Origin: Octopus sinensis
Taxonomy: Eukaryota
Reading direction: 5' to 3'
Assembly (NCBI RefSeq): GCF_006345805.1
Contig: NC_042998.1
Span: 5,084,001-5,148,000 of the forward strand
DNA length: 64,000 bases
Under the pieces are notes generated by a model that ran no database searches, was not told the DNA's origin, and worked only from the letters and a program-made list of their open reading frames with translations. Numbering within the stretch: position 1 is the first letter of the stretch; every line of letters starts with the position of its first letter. This document shows, one piece after another, positions 1,381 through 41,643 of the stretch. Both the position numbers and the translations under genes were made by a program.

Positions 1381-2139
1381 TCTAATGTACCGAAACAATT
1401 CAAACTTCGGAAACTAGTTGAAAAATTTAAATCAATGCAAACAAACAAATAAATAAAATGAAGATTATGCAGCGAGCATTGGGAGAGAATTGACCACTTT
1501 GTTTCGCGTTAACTTGTCCTTACCTATCTCAAAGTATACGCAAAGTAGATAAGTTATATTGTTTGGTCAATGCGAAGCAAAAACATTCTGTCGGATGCAG
1601 CGACCAGTAAACACTGGGCTGTGACTGCGCAAACAAAATGGAATATCAGACTAAACCATCGATACATTAAAAACTGAATATGAAAGAATTCTAATATATC
1701 TCTATAGAAATTTTGTCTGGAAAAACATTGCTCTTTAGGAGACTGAGATGTTTCTCACAAATGTATGAAGTATATGGAGCGGATAAATTTTAAAATTTGT
1801 TCTCATTTTATTTCCGCAAATATAGATAGTTCACCATAAAAAAGAACACACGTAAAACTGCAGGCAGCTTACATCTATACATTCAACACAATATAGTATT
1901 CTTAGGCACAGCATTATAACCTAGAATGTTTTGAAATTTAACTGAAAACACGACGGAAGATATTACACAAAATAACAACAGTGGAAGAAATTAAATTATA
2001 TGAAGATATATTTTATAAAGAAAAAAGCAATGTGATTTTAACTTATTTAAAACTGTGAATAACAACAACGACGACAGCGATGATGACGATGATTACGATG
2101 GCGACCACGGCAACAATAACAACAACAATATTAATAATA

Positions 2140-2290
2140 AGTTTTCATATTATAGACACAGGACCTGAAATTTTGTGTGGAGGAGCAACAAGATTATATT
2201 GACCCTAGTACTCGAGCGATATTGATTTCATCGTCCCCGAACGGATGAAAGATAAAGTCGAATTCTGTGAAATTTGAACGTAAAGACGTA
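2140..2290 (-). mobile_element. Diverged SINE family C copy
   Basis: cccgaacggatgaaagataaagtcga...aatttgaacg core plus a gacacaggacctgaaattttg tail. Confidence 0.7.
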
Positions 2291-2347
2291 ATAATAATGT
2301 TACCAACTCATTAACTTGCGGCATGACGAAAATGAATTTTTAAATAT

Positions 2348-2582
2348 ATTTCTTTACTACCCACAAGGGGCTAAACATAGAGGGGACAATCAAGGACAGT
2401 CAAACGGATTAAGTCGATTATATCGACCCCAGTGCGTAATTGGTACTTAATTTATCGACCCCGAAAGGATGAAAGGCAAAGTCGACCTCGGCGGAATTTG
2501 AACTCGCGACGTAACAGCAGACGAAATACGGCTACGCATTTCGCCCGGCGTGCTAACGTTTCTGCCAGCTCACCTCCTTCAT
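2348..2582 (-). mobile_element. SINE family C (tRNA head, Nin/Deu-like core, tail C1), full length with 20-bp TSD
   Basis: Minus strand reads gagctggcagaaacgttagc...gagttcaaattccgccgaggtcgactttgcctttcatcctttcggggtcgataaa. TSD gaaaatgaatttttaaatat at 2328-2347 and 2583-2602. Confidence 0.92.
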
Positions 2583-2681
2583 GAAAATGAATTTTTAAAT
2601 ATCCCATAAACAGGCGAGCGTGTGTAGATGAAATGGCATAAATAAAAAAAATATATGGAGAACGCACTCAAACGTGAGTGA

Positions 2682-3299
2682 ATTGGCCTGAGGGGTCACA
2701 TAAGAGCCTTCTGCCCTCCCCCAGGGAAAGAAATGGATTCCGAACCACACAGAGAGAAGCAGAAACCAGAGGAGAAGGAGACAGTAGAAGAGGAAGAGAA
2801 TACACAGAAATGGAAGGAAGCTGGAAATAAGAGGAAGAGAAGAATACGAAGAAAAGAAAATAACATGGAACACCAATCCACCCCAAAACCACCCACACCC
2901 TCTGAGTCCCACCCTATTCCTGCAGACAGTGAACCCACCCGCTCCCCCCCCCCAACAAGAAAACAAAAGAAAAATAATAATACACACACACAAGAGATTG
3001 AATTCGATATCAGGCCGTACATTTGTACTATGACTGAACAGAAAGAAGTTAAAAGTCTAATGGAAGAGTATAAATGGTATGAAGTTGGTGAGACTAGGTA
3101 TGCTGTGATTGAAAAGAAGAACATAGATGAGTTTATGGTGAGGTGTGAAAGGGAGAATTGGGAGGTGAAGGATATAAGAATGAGCGATGAATTCGTGGAA
3201 AATATGGATGAGTATTTCGGAGTAAGAATGGATATGGAATTTATTCGTATTGGCAAAGAACATTCAAGTGACGATGAAAAACAAAGGACAGGTAAGTGA
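2682..3299 (+). CDS. Truncated ORF1/gag-like protein: C-terminal half of a CCHC zinc knuckle, charged/basic linker, C-terminal domain
   Basis: In frame upstream of the ATG at 2733 the sequence reads IGLRGHIRAFCPPPGKEM, matching CFLCGIRGHMKARRCP in the 5972 ORF. Confidence 0.7.
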   Translation: MGLRGHIRAFCPPPGKEMDSEPHREKQKPEEKETVEEEENTQKWKEAGNKRKRRIRRKENNMEHQSTPKPPTPSESHPIPADSEPTRSPPPTRKQKKNNNTHTQEIEFDIRPYICTMTEQKEVKSLMEEYKWYEVGETRYAVIEKKNIDEFMVRCERENWEVKDIRMSDEFVENMDEYFGVRMDMEFIRIGKEHSSDDEKQRTGK

Positions 3300-3451
3300 T
3301 GCTAACGGATGGGGCCGTTGGTATCGCTTTCATACTATCATTTTCTTTCACTTAACAATTCATTTTTCATAAATTTTAATTATAATGTTCTATGTCCCCA
3401 TGTCTTTTGGTGTCCCCCTCTGTGTCGCCCCTAGTGGGTAATAAAGAATCA
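2682..3451 (+). mobile_element. 5'-truncated ORF1-only (HAL1-like) retroposon with 14-bp TSD
   Basis: TSD tcaaacgtgagtga at 2668-2681 and 3452-3465. The reading frame is open from 2682 to the stop at 3299, followed by a ~150-nt 3' UTR ending in aataaagaatc. No ORF2 is present. Confidence 0.8.
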
Positions 3452-3469
3452 TCAAACGTGAGTGAGGAT

Positions 3470-4450
3470 CCTTCATTTGGGCTTCGTTAAAGTACCTCAC
3501 AAATGTGAATATATTTAGCACAGTGAACAAGATCATTTCCTCTACTTATCATGAGGTTATACAACTGGTGATTCCCTAGAAGCTGTAAATTCTGCTGTGG
3601 TGCGTTTTCTCTATTACCTTATTAGGATGGTTCTAATGGGTTTCGAGACACCTACTGCAGCTTAATGTTGCATGTTTCACAGAAAGGCATTCTTAACTGT
3701 AACACTAATCTTTACTACAACACCAATTATTTTCTATTTCTACTCAGCATGTAACATTCCAGCTTGATTGCTTATTCTTCTTCAGGAGAAATGAGAAGTT
3801 GCAGGTTCCTAGAAACTTGTGCCGACCACATGAAATTTTATGTCACATCAGCGCACATCCACTGCTCGTCCTTTGCTGTGAAGGTTACTTTCATATCAAA
3901 CGATATCTTACATCGTCTGTTCCTTTGAGAGACTTTGAAAATCCACCCCACCAGGACTTAGCGAAACGCTAGAATGGCACATTCCTCCTTACTTGCTCTA
4001 AGGTAAATACTTCATTCCTTTGAGACCAGCTGCTATCATGATGTATGGTTTTGCCACTGCTCCCCGATCTACTTTTTTTCCCAAAACAAAAACAAAAGAA
4101 TATTGCTCTTCTCAGACTATCCTATACTAAGACTATTGCTTGTAATGTCGCCCAAGTTTTTCATAGAGTCTCAGACCAAGCCAAGCGACAAGCAAATTAA
4201 CAGGTGAGACATTCCAGGACTTTAGCCAGCAGCTTCGAATTGCTTCTCCGCATCTCCAAGTTTTGGCGCATTAATCTTTTGAGTCTGTAATGACTCAGGA
4301 ACGTGTGAGCTATTGAGACTTACTTAATATCCGATATAATTACAGTAACGTCATCCACCCATAACAACGCGGGTCTTCCGTATCTAAGTTACAACTGGTG
4401 ACACGTCAAACCCTTCAATTACCAAGGTACTGCCTGCAGAGTCACTGCAT
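3470..4450 (-). pseudogene. Highly degraded non-LTR reverse transcriptase remnant
   Basis: Minus strand at ~4330-4375 reads RPALLWVDDVTVIISD, an RT catalytic DD-type motif. The rest is broken by stops, so the extent is uncertain. Confidence 0.35.
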
Positions 4451-4539
4451 ACTGAAGAGTTGAGTCTGGGTCTACGGAAATCACATGTAACTGGTCAATA
4501 TGTTCTTTCATTCACTAAATTACTAGACACGTTGTTCGA

Positions 4540-4918
4540 AGTCTTGATATTAGATTATACCCAACTGTTATATCCTTACCTATATTTTCGTATATTTTTT
4601 GTTGTCATTCTTGTTGTTTGTATTAATAATCGCGTAACATTTTCTCCGTTTTCTCGTTTTTTTTTTTGTCGTCGTGTTGTCGCCCATATTCGCTCGCTTT
4701 CGTCCAAAAATTTAATGTCTTCAGCTTAGATTTTTGGGACCTACCAATTTTGAACAGTCTAAGTGTAACAAGCCGAAACTGTAACGATGATTGGAAGCTT
4801 GACAGAGGAATAGACAACCACGGATGTTCCATCCTAGTTTTCCTGTCCGTCTTTGTATCGTCCATCTGTCCGTATGTTTTTATTGTCGCGGTTACGTTCT
4901 TGTTCCGTTTTTTGAATT
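4540..4918 (+). mobile_element. Penelope-type non-coding repeat fragment
   Basis: Homologous to both arms of the element at 61170-62010 (taacaagccgaaac...gtatcgtccatctgtccgtatgtttt...cgttcttgttcc). Ends at a (TA)n tract. Confidence 0.6.
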
Positions 4919-22713: not shown

Positions 22714-22901
22714 CACATACATACAAACATTATATATATATATATATATAATATATATATATATTGAGAGGGAGGGAGAAAGAGAAAGAGGTAGATAGAT
22801 AGAGATAGATAGATACATATATTTATTATTTATTATTTAATTGAACGCGACGCATCCATTTTCAGGTATAAATACATGTGTATGTGTGTGTATTTATATA
22901 T

Positions 22902-22976
<75 letters not shown>

Positions 22977-23251
22977 GTGTGTGTGTGTGTGTGTGTGGTG
23001 GTGTGTGTGTGTGTGTGTTGTGTGTATTATTTTCCTGCCGATATGCCTCTGATAACTCTAAATAATTATGACGATGTTTGTTACATGGAACGAGATAAAT
23101 GTAAATTCCTTCAAATATAAGAAACTGAAACAGCTGTAAATGTTATTTTAACTACAATTAAACGATGACCATTTAAAACCAATGATCAACTTATAATTTT
23201 TAATTGTTGCTCAAATTCTTTTCTTATCTGTATATACATGCATATATATAA

Positions 23252-23328
<77 letters not shown>

Positions 23329-23620
23329 TGTGTGTGTTGTGTGTGGTGTGTGTGTGTGTGTGTGGTGTGTGTGTGTGTTGTGTGTATTATTTTCCTGCCG
23401 ATATGCCTCTGATAAACTCTAAATAATTATGACGATGTTTGTTACATGGAACGAGATAAATGTAAATTTCCTTCAAATATAAGAAACTGAAACAGCTGTA
23501 AATGTTATTTTAACTACAATTAAACGATGACCATTTAAAACCAATGATCAACTTATAATTTTTAATTGTTGCTCAAATTCTTTTCTTATCTGTATATACA
23601 TGCATATATATAAAAAATAT
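21500..23620. repeat. Tandem duplication/triplication: ~870-bp unit twice plus a third copy of its ~230-bp distal block
   Basis: Block tattattttcctgccgatatgcc...cttatctgtatatacatgc occurs at ~22130, ~23025 and ~23385. Differences are mostly single-base indels and microsatellite lengths. Confidence 0.92.
21520..21732 (+). mobile_element. Penelope-type short repeat with degenerate minimal hammerhead (duplicate at 22380-22592)
   Basis: gttt-CCGACGAA-gagc tcc gctc-GAAA-cgtt-aaac at ~21600-21634, flanked by (TA)n on both sides. Confidence 0.6.
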
Positions 23621-23621
23621 A

Positions 23622-23657
<36 letters not shown>

Positions 23658-23819
23658 TGTATGTATGTATGTATGTATGTATATATGTATTTATATATAT
23701 ATGTGTGTATGTAAATATACATATGTATGTATGTATATATGTATTTATATATATATGTGTGTATGTAAATATACATATGTATATATATATATACATGGGA
23801 GGTGTATATGTGTATGCAT

Positions 23820-36560: not shown

Positions 36561-37986
36561 ATGTATATATATAAGGATAAGATAATTAAATATAAAATAA
36601 AATAACGATTTTATCAAGTGGTCAGCATGGAAAAAAATAACCTTCAAAGGTGATAATTATAAAAATTATATATATATATATATATGCCACAGTATCTTGG
36701 AAAACGGTTTTATGATCTTATAGCCCGGGAACAGCCCTTGATCCTTTTTTTTTTATTTCTATGCTCCAATTATTTAAACTACTAAAAGACTACATAAACA
36801 AGTTTATCAGTATGCAGCTTATGGCGCGCATTTATGGCATATTTATTTGAATAAACGTGTGTGGGTATATATTATACTACCTCCTCTTGTTCATATGAAT
36901 GTAAATGATTCAAATCATAAAAATATTATCATATATATTTCGCATTGTTGAAGCAACATTTGCAGCCAGCAACATTGGATTAAAGAATCTAGATTTAGTT
37001 TTCAATCTTTTGTGTTACCAAAACTGACCAGAATGTGTTATCATTTCATTTATAGACGTTGAAAAACGTTTATTTGTTTAACTGGATATAGATATGATAC
37101 AATTGTCTTGTAAAGTTTATATCATACTTGTTATCTTCTATTTGTTTGTTTTGGCTTTGTGGGGAATCTTTTCCGACAATTTACAATCGGGTGTGTTTAT
37201 TTTGCACCTCTATCTCGCAATTTACCATATCTTCTTATAAGAACACGTGTGTAGCATATATTATATATATATATATACATATGTGTGTAAGTGGCTGTGT
37301 ATGTACATACATAAATAGATATACAAATATACACATACACACATATATACTTAACATATATATGTATATATATACTTACAGACATGTATATATATATATA
37401 TATACTTACAGGCACGCAGACACACAGACACATACGTATGTGTGTAAAAATGCGTTGTTATTTTTAGAAAAAACAGCTATTTCGATTTTAGTATAACTTA
37501 TTATTGATTTTCCGTACTTTTATATTCCTTTATGCTTAATTTCATTCAATACATGGGCATTTTCATGGATACCTTTTACACGGTAAAATAAAATCATATT
37601 TCTAGTAGATAATACCTGTTCGTGGTTCAAACCATGCATTGTGTAACTTATTGTTACGTGCTTTAATGACTTCTTGTGGCAAATGTAGGAGTAGGCAAGA
37701 AGTTTATTTGTATATAGGAGTGAGTGTAAACGTGTGTGTAGGTTCGCATGTGCGTGTACATATATTTGTGGATTCGTGTGCATAAATTGTGCACATGAGT
37801 ACAGGCAAGTTCAAAACCGATATAAATTCTACAACGTTGACAAAATACGTTACTATAAATCATTTCTACTGCTACTCTGTTATCTCATAGGTAGACTGAT
37901 CATCCACAAGATACTATTCCCAAATATAACCAGAGTCCGTATGGCGATAACACTTAATTAGAGCTGGATGAAGAAGGGTTATAGAC

Positions 37987-38199
37987 ATACTCTTTACTCT
38001 TTACTCTTTTACTTGTTTCAGTCATTTGACTGCGGCCATACTGGAGCACCGCCTTTTAGTCGAGCAAATCGACCCCGGGACTTATTCTTTGTAAGCCTAG
38101 TACTTATTCTATCGGTCGCTTTTGCCGAACCGCTAAGTGACGGGGATATAAACACACCAGCATCGGTTGTCAAGCAATGCTAGGGGGACAAACACATAT

Positions 38200-38253
<54 letters not shown>

Positions 38254-38407
38254 GACAGGCTTCTTTCAGTTTCCGTCTACCAAATCCACTCACAAGGCAT
38301 TGGTCGGCCCGGGGCTATAGCAGAAGGCACTCGCCCAAGATGCCACGCAGTGGGACTGAACCCGGAACCATGTGGTTGGTTAGCAAGCTACTTACCACAC
38401 AGCCACA
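37987..38407 (-). mobile_element. SINE family A
   Basis: Reverse complement of 467-901 and 55101-55517. Confidence 0.92.
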
Positions 38408-38866
38408 TTCAAGAGAAATGTTTCAGAAAAGATTATCTATTTTTAAATCTACTGATATTAGAAGAACCTGGATTAACCCACCCTAATAAGAAACCAAAGG
38501 TTTTGACATTGAATGTGATTAATGAAGACATGAAACATTTTGTATACTCTCTCAGTAACTGAAAGTAGTTTCTAGAAGGTATTGAAGAAGTAAACAAGAA
38601 ATAGCATGAAAGCTCTATCATGTTTTAAAAAATTGTATAATGATCGGAGATTTACAGGAGTATATCAGAAAAGTGGCGTCCCTTACCTATATTGAGAAAA
38701 AGAGTTTAAATACTACGCAATTCGACTAAATGGCCTGCTCGCTGGAGATGCTTGTCTAGACCTTGTAAAGATATAAGAATTCTAGTGAAATAAATGCACT
38801 GATTACAAAAATATAAACATTACATTTCTAAATATCTCACAGAGATATAAACAGTAGTGGTACGAT

Positions 38867-39201
38867 AGAGTAGTTGTATACTGTCAACTTAATGTGTCAG
38901 TCCCATGAAGTGAATCACACCACTGCTATTTAGCCCAAGGAAACATCAACACTTCCTGTCGGCCTTGGCACATTTCCTGTGTTCCTATTTTTACAAGTAC
39001 TCCTAACTGATGACGAGCAAGGCTCAGAAACTAGTCTCTGATTGCAGGCTTTGCTAGGTGGGGGTGATTGTCTCCCTGTTGTAAACATAAGTTCACAGGA
39101 AATGTGTCAAGGCCGACATGAAGCGTTGCTGCTTCCTAGGGCTAAATAGCAGTGGTGTGATTCCCTTCATGGGCCTGTCACATTAAGTTGACAGTATAAA
39201 A

Positions 39202-39210
<9 letters not shown>
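38867..39210. mobile_element. Fold-back element (~115-bp inverted arms) with a hammerhead-like core in the spacer
   Basis: Arms at 38867-38981 and 39094-39210. CTGATGA 39007-39013, GAGC/GCTC stem, GAAA 39027-39030, CTAG-TC. Confidence 0.8.
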
Positions 39211-39283
<73 letters not shown>

Positions 39284-39317
39284 TATATAGGAAAAAAGCA
39301 ACAAGAATGGATCAATA

Positions 39318-39406
39318 TTTCGGTACAATTGTTTCGTACGAAGACATCTTTAATAAGGCTACAACAATTGCAGTAAATATAGGTGACTCGTACTCATCAG
39401 CCGAAA
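39318..39406 (-). ncRNA. Type I minimal hammerhead ribozyme (minus-strand copy)
   Basis: Reverse complement reads UUUCGG-CUGAUGA-GUACGA..UCGUAC-GAAA-CAAUUG-UA-CCGAAA. Confidence 0.8.
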
Positions 39407-39671
39407 AAAACATCTGAGATTCCCAAACATCAAAGGGGGTGATGTTACACTCGTGAAACGTCATGGAAAGTTCTATAAAAATGAGATTTAGATAACAAAT
39501 TGGTTTCTAAAAGTTGGAAAATTTTTTTTAAAAAACTGATATATGACTGTGCAATACTAATAGAACTTTTAGAAACCAATTTGTTATCTAAATCTCATTT
39601 TTATAGAACTTTCCATGATGTTTCACGAGTGTAACATCACCCCCTTTGATGTTTTGGAATCTCAGATGTTT

Positions 39672-39760
39672 TTTCGGCTGATGAGTACGAGTCACCTATA
39701 TTTACTGCAATTTTTGTAGTCTTATTAAAGATGTCATCGTACGAAACAATTGTACCGAAA
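39672..39760 (+). ncRNA. Type I minimal hammerhead ribozyme (plus-strand copy)
   Basis: Stem I tttcgg 39672-77 / ccgaaa 39755-60; CTGATGA 39678-84; stem II gtacga / tcgtac; GAAA 39743-46; palindromic helix III ACAATTGT; GUA cleavage triplet 39752-54. Confidence 0.82.
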
Positions 39761-39911
39761 TATTGATCCATTCTTGTTGCTTTTTTCCTATTTATAATCC
39801 CCCCACTTTGTCGTATGGTTAACACCATATAGATTTCTGGTGCATCCAAGTTAAGTACCATATTCATGTGAATTCAACAGAACTCACTTGAATCTTAATC
39901 GCTTGTACATA

Positions 39912-39963
<52 letters not shown>

Positions 39964-41247
39964 TTGTAAGTGTTAATACTTTATAGTTTTAAATTAGCTT
40001 TAATCGTAGCAAGGTCTTATAATAATAGTTAATTACAAGTATACTTTTATTAGTTCATATTTAATAAATTTAATGTTTCTATTAGTTACTGGTAAGTTTG
40101 CATTAAAACTTGTAAGGATAATATATATTGATGAGTATGTAGTGTTTTTGCTATTAACTTTTCAATTAGGAAATAATATATTTCACTCATAATTATTATA
40201 TTATTCGTTAAATTAAATTCAATCGTGTTTTGTTTTGGAGAAAATTGAAATAAAGCTTTCACTTTTTATATTATAGTAGTAACTATGGAAGACTGATGGG
40301 ATTATTATTTGTATGGACTTAAAGATTGGTCGCTATTTAGTATATAATTTAGTTATTGTATGTTTACTGTTAATACCGATACTATTGTGCATAGGGTAAA
40401 TGTGTTTGAAAGTTGTGGTTTTTTGTATGTTTGTTCTCAAACAACACGTATTTCAGTGCTTGTTGACACCGCCGGATTGAATGGTAGTGTCCAGGTGTCG
40501 AAACCATAATGATATCCGTGGGGCAGCTGATGATGGATGTATGTTGGATTGTTGGTATGGCTATTTTTGTATCTGTGGAATCCTTTTGAGATATACGTAT
40601 ATATGTGTGTGCACGCGCGCGCGTGTGTGTGTGTGTGTGCTTGCGTGCGTGTGTGTGTATCCGTATATCTTGTTTTATAAATTTTAGAAAATGTTTTATA
40701 AAAGATGAAGCAATGTTCACTGTTTTGATATCGCTTCTACTATAGGCACATGGCCTGAATTAATGGATTAAAAATTGCATCTTGAAATAGCGAGCTAAAT
40801 ATTTCCTCAGGGTGGGAATTAGACACAAAAAGAATCACATCATAAACGATCAGGTGATCATCAACAGACACAACATGTCAATAATGTGAGCGCGTGTGCA
40901 TGTTAGTATTTTAAAAAAACCTGTATAATCATGGCTTTTGGTTTTATTTATTTGTGCGCCGTGTGTTAAATTTACAATATTTTATATCGAAATATAACCA
41001 TATATATCGAAGTGTAATAACCATTAAACTCCGTAATATATTTATTGGTGACCACTTTAACCAATAAAAACCAATACTATTAAGTGATACTGGATTGCTG
41101 AACATTTCATCGATATATAACATTAAGCCGGTGAAGCTTGGATACTGACATCCATTTTTAAGAGGTATGTGTATCCTCAAAATGAATAAATAAATATATA
41201 CGTATATATATATATAAATATGTGTGTGTGTGTGTCTATATATTTAT

Positions 41248-41643
41248 TCTCTTACGCTTTTATTATTTTACTTGTTTCAGTCATTTGACTGCGGCCATGC
41301 TGGAGCACCATGGAGAAAGAACAAATTGACCCCAAGACTTGTTCTTTGTAAGCCTAGTACTTATTCTCTCGGTCTCTTTTGCCGAACAGTTATGTTACGG
41401 GGACCTAAACACCACCAAGATCGGTTGTCAATCGATGATGCGGGACAAACACAGACACAAATAACAAACACACACATATATATACGACGAGCTTCTTCCA
41501 GTTTCCGTCTACCAAATCCACTCACAAGGCTTCGGGCGGCCCGAGGTTATAGAAGACACTCGCTTAATGTGCCACGCAGTGGGGCTGAACCCGGAACTAT
41601 CTCGTTGGGAAGCAAGCTTATTACCACACCCACTCCTGCGCCT
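41248..41643 (-). mobile_element. SINE family A (more diverged)
   Basis: Same head, body and tail as the other A copies. Confidence 0.88.

Follow-up and report, generated by a model that had tools for sequence, protein, structure and literature searches.

Penelope-like elements (PLEs) typically leave inverted, 5'-truncated copies and one-sided tails, and the origin of their inverted pLTRs and tails has been called open (PMC8557442). Opposite-strand hammerhead pairs 100–700 bp apart were described in Schistosoma in 2014 and ascribed to truncated PLEs (PMC4209133), and Penelope-13_HM, in the supplement of PMC8557442, is listed with a 5'-truncated inverted copy and one hammerhead per strand. Inverted pLTRs of this kind, with both strands bearing a hammerhead, are already known, also in the Hydra clade (Craig et al. 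2021, PMC8557442; e.g., Hydra-1_Obim and Penelope-13_HM), which is characterized in that paper by an RWK-like motif, by DKT instead of DKG, by CxCx5C, CxxC and CxH motifs, by the lack of GxKF/Y and CCHH, by (TA)n targeting and, as a general tendency only, by a length of less than 3 kb. For the Poseidon element of the anole (Anolis; PAc), in vitro work (PMC11167929) described cutting and extension of both target strands at an AT-rich target, starts of reverse transcription at two internal sites that bound the tail, and uncleaved RNA as the main template; the two sites are 30–40 nt apart and show no strand preference, and inverted insertions are not analyzed in the main text of that study.

The octopus family described here resembles the Penelope elements of Adineta vaga and Drosophila virilis (PMC3846280) in its head-to-head pLTRs, its junction palindromes and the tail on one of the inverted pLTRs, and the rotifer Penelopes of the same paper in their Asn-rich ORF inserts. 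These elements belong to another clade, and their tail is 31 nt long, whereas that of the octopus family is ~120 nt, compared with 30–40 nt usual for PLEs; in addition, target duplications are not discernible in the octopus copies owing to the (TA)n. Like the minimal PLE hammerheads (Cervera and de la Pena 2014, PMC4209133), the octopus motif is of type I, with a G10.1–C11.1 pair, a weak palindromic helix III and a proposed action as a dimer. Unlike them, it has no unpaired base before stem II, its helix III consists of 2 bp and a palindromic loop of 4 nt, and its stem II is extended by a structured arm of 46 nt. Non-LTR retrozymes (PMC7229834; bioRxiv 10.64898/2026.07.22.740005) are likewise non-coding, carry type I hammerheads and derive from PLE pLTRs, but they form head-to-tail arrays with the ribozymes on one strand and circular monomers, whereas the two octopus motifs are on different strands and point outward. 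No head-to-tail hammerhead array was found at the locus or among the fetched regions. What is new in the octopus family is new in degree: the 120-nt tail, the 46-nt stem II arm, the long Asn-rich linker and the counted rules for the arm ends.

The palindrome and its parent element

The window, meaning the whole 64-kb stretch of Octopus sinensis DNA that was analyzed, is free of N and contains two arms, 39288–39515 and 39564–39790, which are reverse complements of ~228 nt each. The near-perfect match reported in the first-pass annotation was confirmed by local alignment, which found that the arms differ by five substitutions and a single indel of 1 nt, and by an inverted-repeat search (97–98% identity, 48 nt between the arms). 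As that annotation had also stated, the differences spare the catalytic core; helix III, stem I and the 6 bp of stem II are likewise free of them. With six differences, and ~43 of 228 nt belonging to the core or stems, the chance of a core free of differences is ~0.3, so that the agreement between the arms is uninformative alone, and conservation of the core is visible only across copies.

The insertion spans 39288–39908 and lies between two (TA)n runs in the tandem-repeat listing, which form its left (39242–39289) and right (39909–39962) target flanks. The left end of the element as first annotated (39288–39790) was correct, but the right end had to be moved to 39908, since 39790–39908 is element sequence. 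Numbered from the predicted ribozyme cut, the inverted arm (39288–39515, minus strand) is a 5'-truncated pLTR running from −192 to a short end at +35 (95.6% identical to L032:5463–5690, in a copy of the parent element), and the forward arm (39517–39789, plus strand) is a 5'-truncated pLTR running from −239 to +35 (93.5% to L032:5416–5690). The forward arm alone is followed by a tail of ~120 nt (39790–39908, plus strand; 92.8% to L032:1467–1604), which in full-length copies is directly continuous with the 5' end of the ORF region. Because the right arm is collinear with the element, matching it without a break from 39517 to about 39904, the apparent spacer (39516–39563, plus strand) is not a separate part. 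After one extra base at the head-to-head junction come 47 nt (39517–39563) that belong to the upstream 3' UTR of the element itself and occur only in the right arm.

Both arms correspond to the 3' pLTR of a Penelope-like element of 4.2–4.7 kb that encodes a reverse transcriptase (RT) and a GIY-YIG domain, and near-full-length copies of this parent are present elsewhere in the genome (units of 4209 and 4723 nt). The order in L032 is (TA)n, inverted pLTR (1071–1466), tail copy (1467–1603), ORF (about 1585–4695, interrupted once), 3' UTR, hammerhead, tail and (TA)n. In L279, from a second subfamily, direct pLTRs flank an open frame of 1124 codons, and L284 has pLTRs in both orientations. Upstream of the arm, longer copies have the 3' UTR and then the ORF. 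The RT and GIY-YIG in a single ORF, the direct or inverted pLTRs, the 5' truncation, the tail at one end and the hammerhead in the pLTR are all traits of EN+ Penelope-like elements. Judging from these matches, the palindrome in the window is almost certainly a 5'-truncated fragment of a Penelope-like retrotransposon. In itself, the locus amounts to ordinary retrotransposon debris. The two hammerheads are passengers of the pLTR and likely lack a function in this stump.

Trimmed domains of the parent copies gave weak matches under the Pfam cut-offs (RVT_1, E 0.0084; GIY-YIG, E 0.00043), whole-ORF pieces had no match in Pfam, and a sequence search of the RT half against the PDB returned none. The element protein has 40 database homologues at 35–50% identity, and the YRDD and IYKC..Y.G motifs are present in the parent proteins. 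Protein P0041 has RWR at position 56 and DKT at 143, and lacks GxK[FY]; L032 has CNCRIKSKC (CxCx5C linker), CQLC (CxxC) and CIH (CxH) near the end of EN. The L279 frame, in which the C-terminus is shifted, lacks CIH and reads YRHD at the YRDD position. CCHH was absent from the parent proteins in a reading by eye. With the interruption in L032 and these two changes in L279, no fully intact protein was found among the fetched copies. RT and EN are separated by a linker of ~440 aa with 27% Asn and internal repeats (L279:2298–5672; L032:2359–4695). A homodimer prediction for residues 20–505 of P0041, run without an alignment, scored 0.00, which counts neither for nor against dimerization.

The motifs, together with (TA)n targeting, suggest assignment of the parent element to the Hydra clade, with which it also shares a C-terminal GIY-YIG and a hammerhead near the 3' end. 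Its units of 4209 and 4723 nt exceed the Hydra length of under about 3 kb (PMC8557442), largely because of the Asn-rich linker, which is itself a difference from that clade. The octopus family is further set apart from the Hydra entries in the supplement of that paper by its ribozyme sequence: the ribozymes listed there have loops of 3–10 nt, compared with 46 nt in the octopus stem II, and the one listed for Hydra-1_Obim differs from that of the octopus family when compared by eye.

The hammerhead motif and its helix III

Each arm carries a complete type I hammerhead motif, consisting of stem I UUUCGG/CCGAAA, CUGAUGA, stem II GUACGA/UCGUAC, GAAA, helix III ACAAUUGU and a GUA site. Stems I and II are 6 bp each, and stem II encloses a conserved 46-nt extension that ends in a hairpin. 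When the 64-kb window was scanned with a type I descriptor, exactly two matches appeared, one per arm and on opposite strands, as had been described: 39318–39406 (minus strand), with a predicted cut after 39324, and 39672–39760 (plus strand), with a predicted cut after 39754. The Rfam models, which the first-pass annotation had named as the other way of finding the motif, failed to detect it. No Rfam family matched in the window at the gathering score, and the 30 matches at E ≤ 10 included no hammerhead family, only sub-threshold hairpin families. The miss is likely due to the long stem II.

The core, which was expected to be conserved across genomic copies, kept its pattern in 170 of 192 extracted copies. 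Minority letters made up 0.74% of the core in subfamily A, compared with 4.5–8.3% in the flanks; in subfamily B the corresponding values were 1.15% and 1.5–3.9%, a weak contrast. Helix III was ACAAUUGU in 110 of the 192 copies and ACGAUCGU in 59, the remainder being 12 single variants and 11 unparsed copies. The change from ACAAUUGU to ACGAUCGU between subfamilies retains self-complementarity, as a dimer ribozyme needs, and the changed pair is best read as intermolecular, since it would close a 2-nt loop in a monomer. The computed energies of helix III were −6.4 and −10.0 kcal/mol for the like duplexes, −1.9 kcal/mol for the mixed duplex and +2.4 kcal/mol for the monomer hairpin. This palindrome-preserving double change, a single evolutionary event, is natural evidence for cleavage as a dimer.

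Covariation was analyzed in 18 copies chosen by hand, which came from the main subfamily and from more distant ones. Here, 94% of cells were paired, a value inflated by the relatedness of the sequences. Two-sided changes were found in 9 of 23 pairs, located in stem I, stem II and the apical hairpin of the insert; none of 500 shuffles scored as high, and slid controls gave 32–51%, again for 18 related copies. The ribozyme of the parent element was under selection in its source lineages, which has no bearing on the function of the window copy. It likely processes tandem transcripts as a dimer. Two earlier suggestions have therefore fared well: the hammerhead with its palindromic helix III does belong to a Penelope-like element, the arms being its pLTR, and action as a dimer can be called probable, given that helix III stays self-complementary between subfamilies.

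Folding z-scores were not significant (−1.06 for the ribozyme, −1.45 for the tail). The fold predicted for the whole element in the window, of about −400 kcal/mol, encloses the ribozyme in the duplex, which agrees with the geometry proposed initially, in which a read-through transcript would bury its ribozyme in a hairpin. Such burial would be a consequence of how the insertion formed. Neither masking as a regulatory design nor ADAR editing, for which the duplex had been put forward as a candidate substrate, gained support from the public sequencing runs examined, which consist of contigs, none recorded as RNA.

Arm ends and the route of insertion

The copy-number search proposed in the first-pass annotation gave 1676 first-look candidates in the genome for one arm, 40 of which were scored, at 93–98% identity. 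Exact-pattern searches found 70 short-ended copies followed by TATA and 372 copies that continue with TATTT, while the 5' end of the ORF had only 119 candidates, in line with heavy 5' truncation. For the analysis of arm ends, 285 loci were pooled into 207 regions, and the arms were mapped on two natural copies. To count as a pair, two arms of opposite strand, one minus and one plus, had to meet with no more than 45 nt between them, and each had to extend to +22 or beyond relative to the cut. Where the second arm ended outside the fetched DNA, the pair was left out. This yielded 95 head-to-head pairs, or 88 distinct pairs after removal of seven local duplicates (six flagged, plus L094 by its shared flanks). 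Single-armed copies were also common.

The 3' ends of the arms fell at two sites, +35 (in some cases +43) and about +155 from the predicted cut, ~120 nt apart. The 88 distinct pairs comprised 83 with one long and one short end, two long+long, two with a short end and a broken tail, one cut by the locus edge, and none short+short. Both long+long pairs are tandem copies in which the far end is short, and they resolve to long+short. Of 84 long/short pairs, 81 had at least (TA)3 on each outer side; of the three that did not, two run on into a tandem unit. Paired arms belonged to one subfamily in 34 of 34 pairs, and their divergence was 3.5%, compared with 6.1% between insertions of one subfamily.

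The 5' ends of paired arms were coupled, lying ≤25 nt apart in 26 of the 53 pairs from unbiased pattern searches, whereas re-pairing the arms 20000 times gave 7.1 such pairs on average and 17 at most. Coupling was also seen when both starts lay beyond −150 (5 of 18 pairs versus 1.7 expected, p 0.016), and in L260, with arms of over 1 kb, the starts are 1 nt apart. Over half of the pairs were not tightly coupled, with 5' ends >25 nt apart in 44 or more, some by kilobases. The short-ended arm reached further 5' in 49 of 83 pairs and the tail arm in 18 (p 0.0002). Filler was present at 27 of 84 head-to-head junctions, and five were blunt. A recurrent hot spot for junctions was observed at −18 to −23, in the palindrome of ribozyme stem II, at the unrelated loci L180, L197, L204, L208 and L059.

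The predicted cut site was traversed by 246 of 262 arms, and no clear peak of 5' ends was seen at the cut: 16 of 262 arms start at +1 to +10, in a sample partly biased to long arms, with 14/246, 9/232, 12/223 and 12/199 in nearby bins. These numbers are consistent with uncleaved templates. Neither the one-of-each rule nor the coupling of 5' ends was found in the literature searched, the scope of which excluded most subscription papers.

We propose a mechanism read wholly from genomic end points. Both cut (TA)n ends probably prime reverse transcription on the element RNA, at two fixed sites. In this scheme, the GIY-YIG domain would cut both (TA)n strands. On uncleaved RNA, priming would take place at two distances downstream of the ribozyme cut site, 35 nt for one target end and ~155 nt for the other. 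The short cDNAs so made would be linked head to head at their 3' ends, via a few nucleotides of microhomology or filler. Sequence-level support comes from the 3' pLTR identity, the (TA)n flanks, the two fixed 3' ends, the presence of one of each per insertion, the coupled 5' ends and the shared subfamily. Since the 5' ends are coupled, both arms were likely copied from one RNA molecule, a point on which we are less confident. This could happen if a second RT followed the first along the RNA and copied it again, or if the longer cDNA folded back and was taken up by the cDNA extended from the other primer; re-reading and fold-back with capture would be inseparable by sequence. The arm similarity could partly reflect gene conversion, and the symmetric junctions could partly reflect later trimming of a hairpin.

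The two fixed RT starts that bound the tail, the AT-rich target and the uncleaved template are shared with PAc (PMC11167929). The octopus sites differ in being ~120 nt apart and upstream of the start codon, and in that an insertion uses each of them once. As the anole sites are closer together and without strand preference, this strict rule is an extrapolation beyond that system.

A different origin of the palindromes, proposed in PMC3846280 and PMC8557442, is a single priming event, in which the cDNA or antisense template would prime itself at a short palindrome, and resolution by the endonuclease would leave the one-sided tail. Junctions often do lie on short palindromes or overlaps, 52 of 84 overlapping by a few bases, several of them at GTAC, TGCA or CATG; starts are within 3 nt in 16 of 84 pairs, and the window copy, with a tail arm 47 nt longer than the other, fits fold-back from a tail-bearing cDNA. 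Such a cDNA, however, predicts a longer tail arm, the opposite of the 49 to 18 excess of longer short-ended arms. Furthermore, 11 tail arms start at or beyond +25, with no sequence upstream of +25, and are without any overlap with the other arm. Starting from a short-ended cDNA instead would leave no template for the tail, and pairs with a longer short-ended arm need two priming events, since fold-back of a short-ended cDNA cannot add a tail. We consider self-priming an unlikely general explanation.

If two-site priming is correct, this kind of twin priming, a comparison made with L1, would together with re-reading explain the tails, the head-to-head palindromes and the asymmetric loops at once. 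Our confidence is evenly balanced as to whether there is a general Penelope-like rule (one RNA, two fixed sites, one per end, re-reading) combined with an obligate-dimer hammerhead with a conserved 46-nt arm, missed by Rfam. The value of the octopus sequences lies in the family as a test of the integration mechanism, not in the window locus. With its long tail, young copies and hundreds of insertions, the family allows the two ends to be told apart easily and turns the question of the origin of inverted pLTRs into clear in vitro predictions. Such elements seed many long inverted repeats in the octopus genome.

The first-pass annotation had interpreted the palindrome as a separate non-coding fold-back ribozyme retroelement or retrozyme, moving as a unit and masking its own ribozyme by design. 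The near-perfect hairpin, the intact ribozyme motifs and the more than a thousand related places in the genome (the 1676 candidates) would fit such a unit, but the arms derive from a Penelope-like element that encodes protein and form its 3' end, and the head-to-tail arm array that defines non-LTR retrozymes (PMC7229834) is absent from the locus and the fetched regions. The inverted form does recur, head-to-head copies being common, but the junctions differ from copy to copy: 82 different positions were found among the 84 long/short pairs, look-alike junctions have unrelated flanks, and identical ones have shared flanks or are direct local repeats. The junction in the window (−192/−239) occurs once in the sample, and the arms vary in length between 25 nt and more than 4 kb. 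Each palindrome is thus its own insertion event, as indicated by the distinct junctions and unrelated flanks, and on this evidence the palindrome is not a mobile unit; the fold-back reading is very improbable.

Five copies of one palindromic insertion with identical junctions, L093–L097 (genome contig C6, 12.70–12.83 Mb), were considered as transposition of a whole unit, but this was rejected, as their shared flanks mark them as segmental duplicates. At L167, the whole palindrome is directly repeated with only (TA)n between the copies, an arrangement that a moving unit could produce. At L201:171–745, two short ends lie tail to tail across a short (TA)n run, probably representing two insertions into one microsatellite.

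An assembly or chimeric-read artefact is more improbable still. The junction in the window was not spanned by contigs of four public runs, in which the contigs at that place are short, so that this is uninformative. On the other hand, the arms differ at six places, the flanks are not palindromic, the ends obey the long/short rule, and an independent run, from another organism, contains a 535-nt contig in which an opposite-strand joint of the family has the same layout as L004. A DNA transposon (MITE or foldback element) with terminal inverted repeats that captured the ribozyme would account for inverted arms between TA flanks, but is scarcely credible given the unequal ends with their one-sided tail, the variable 5' truncation of the arms toward the center, and the continuity of the arms with an RT/GIY-YIG ORF rather than a transposase.

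Neighboring repeats

Directly to the left of the palindrome, at 38794–39208 of the window, lies a copy of another repeat family, which is unrelated but likewise arranged head to head. It contains a hammerhead-like core of canonical size on the plus strand (39007–39036) with a palindromic ACUAGU. Other copies of this family read CCAGA-CUGAUGA...GAAACUAGUC-UCUGG, and stem I is damaged in the window copy. The family has 2201 candidates in the genome; one arm ends at about +172 and the other at least 60–70 nt further. No ORF was found within 1.5 kb of 15 copies. This is probably another Penelope-like family.

Other hammerhead-like motifs with a long stem II, unrelated to the main family, were seen at L032:612–709 (minus strand), L163:100–200 (plus strand) and L281:853–947 (plus strand), with palindromic helix III sequences (ACACGUGU and ACAUGUGU-like). 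Long-armed hammerheads may be common in the octopus genome.

A search for host genes in the window covered 120 open frames of at least 65 codons and gave one sub-threshold Pfam match, 36 kb away from the palindrome: an Ephrin match at 2682–3296 (plus strand; E 0.00068, below the Pfam cut-off), which is possibly an exon of a host gene. A tandem repeat with a period of 362 and 2.2 copies is located at 22895–23680, around TA and TG microsatellites. Finally, two SINE-like repeat copies of ~400 nt, 83–87% alike and interrupted by microsatellites, were found at 37980–38400 and 41239–41629.
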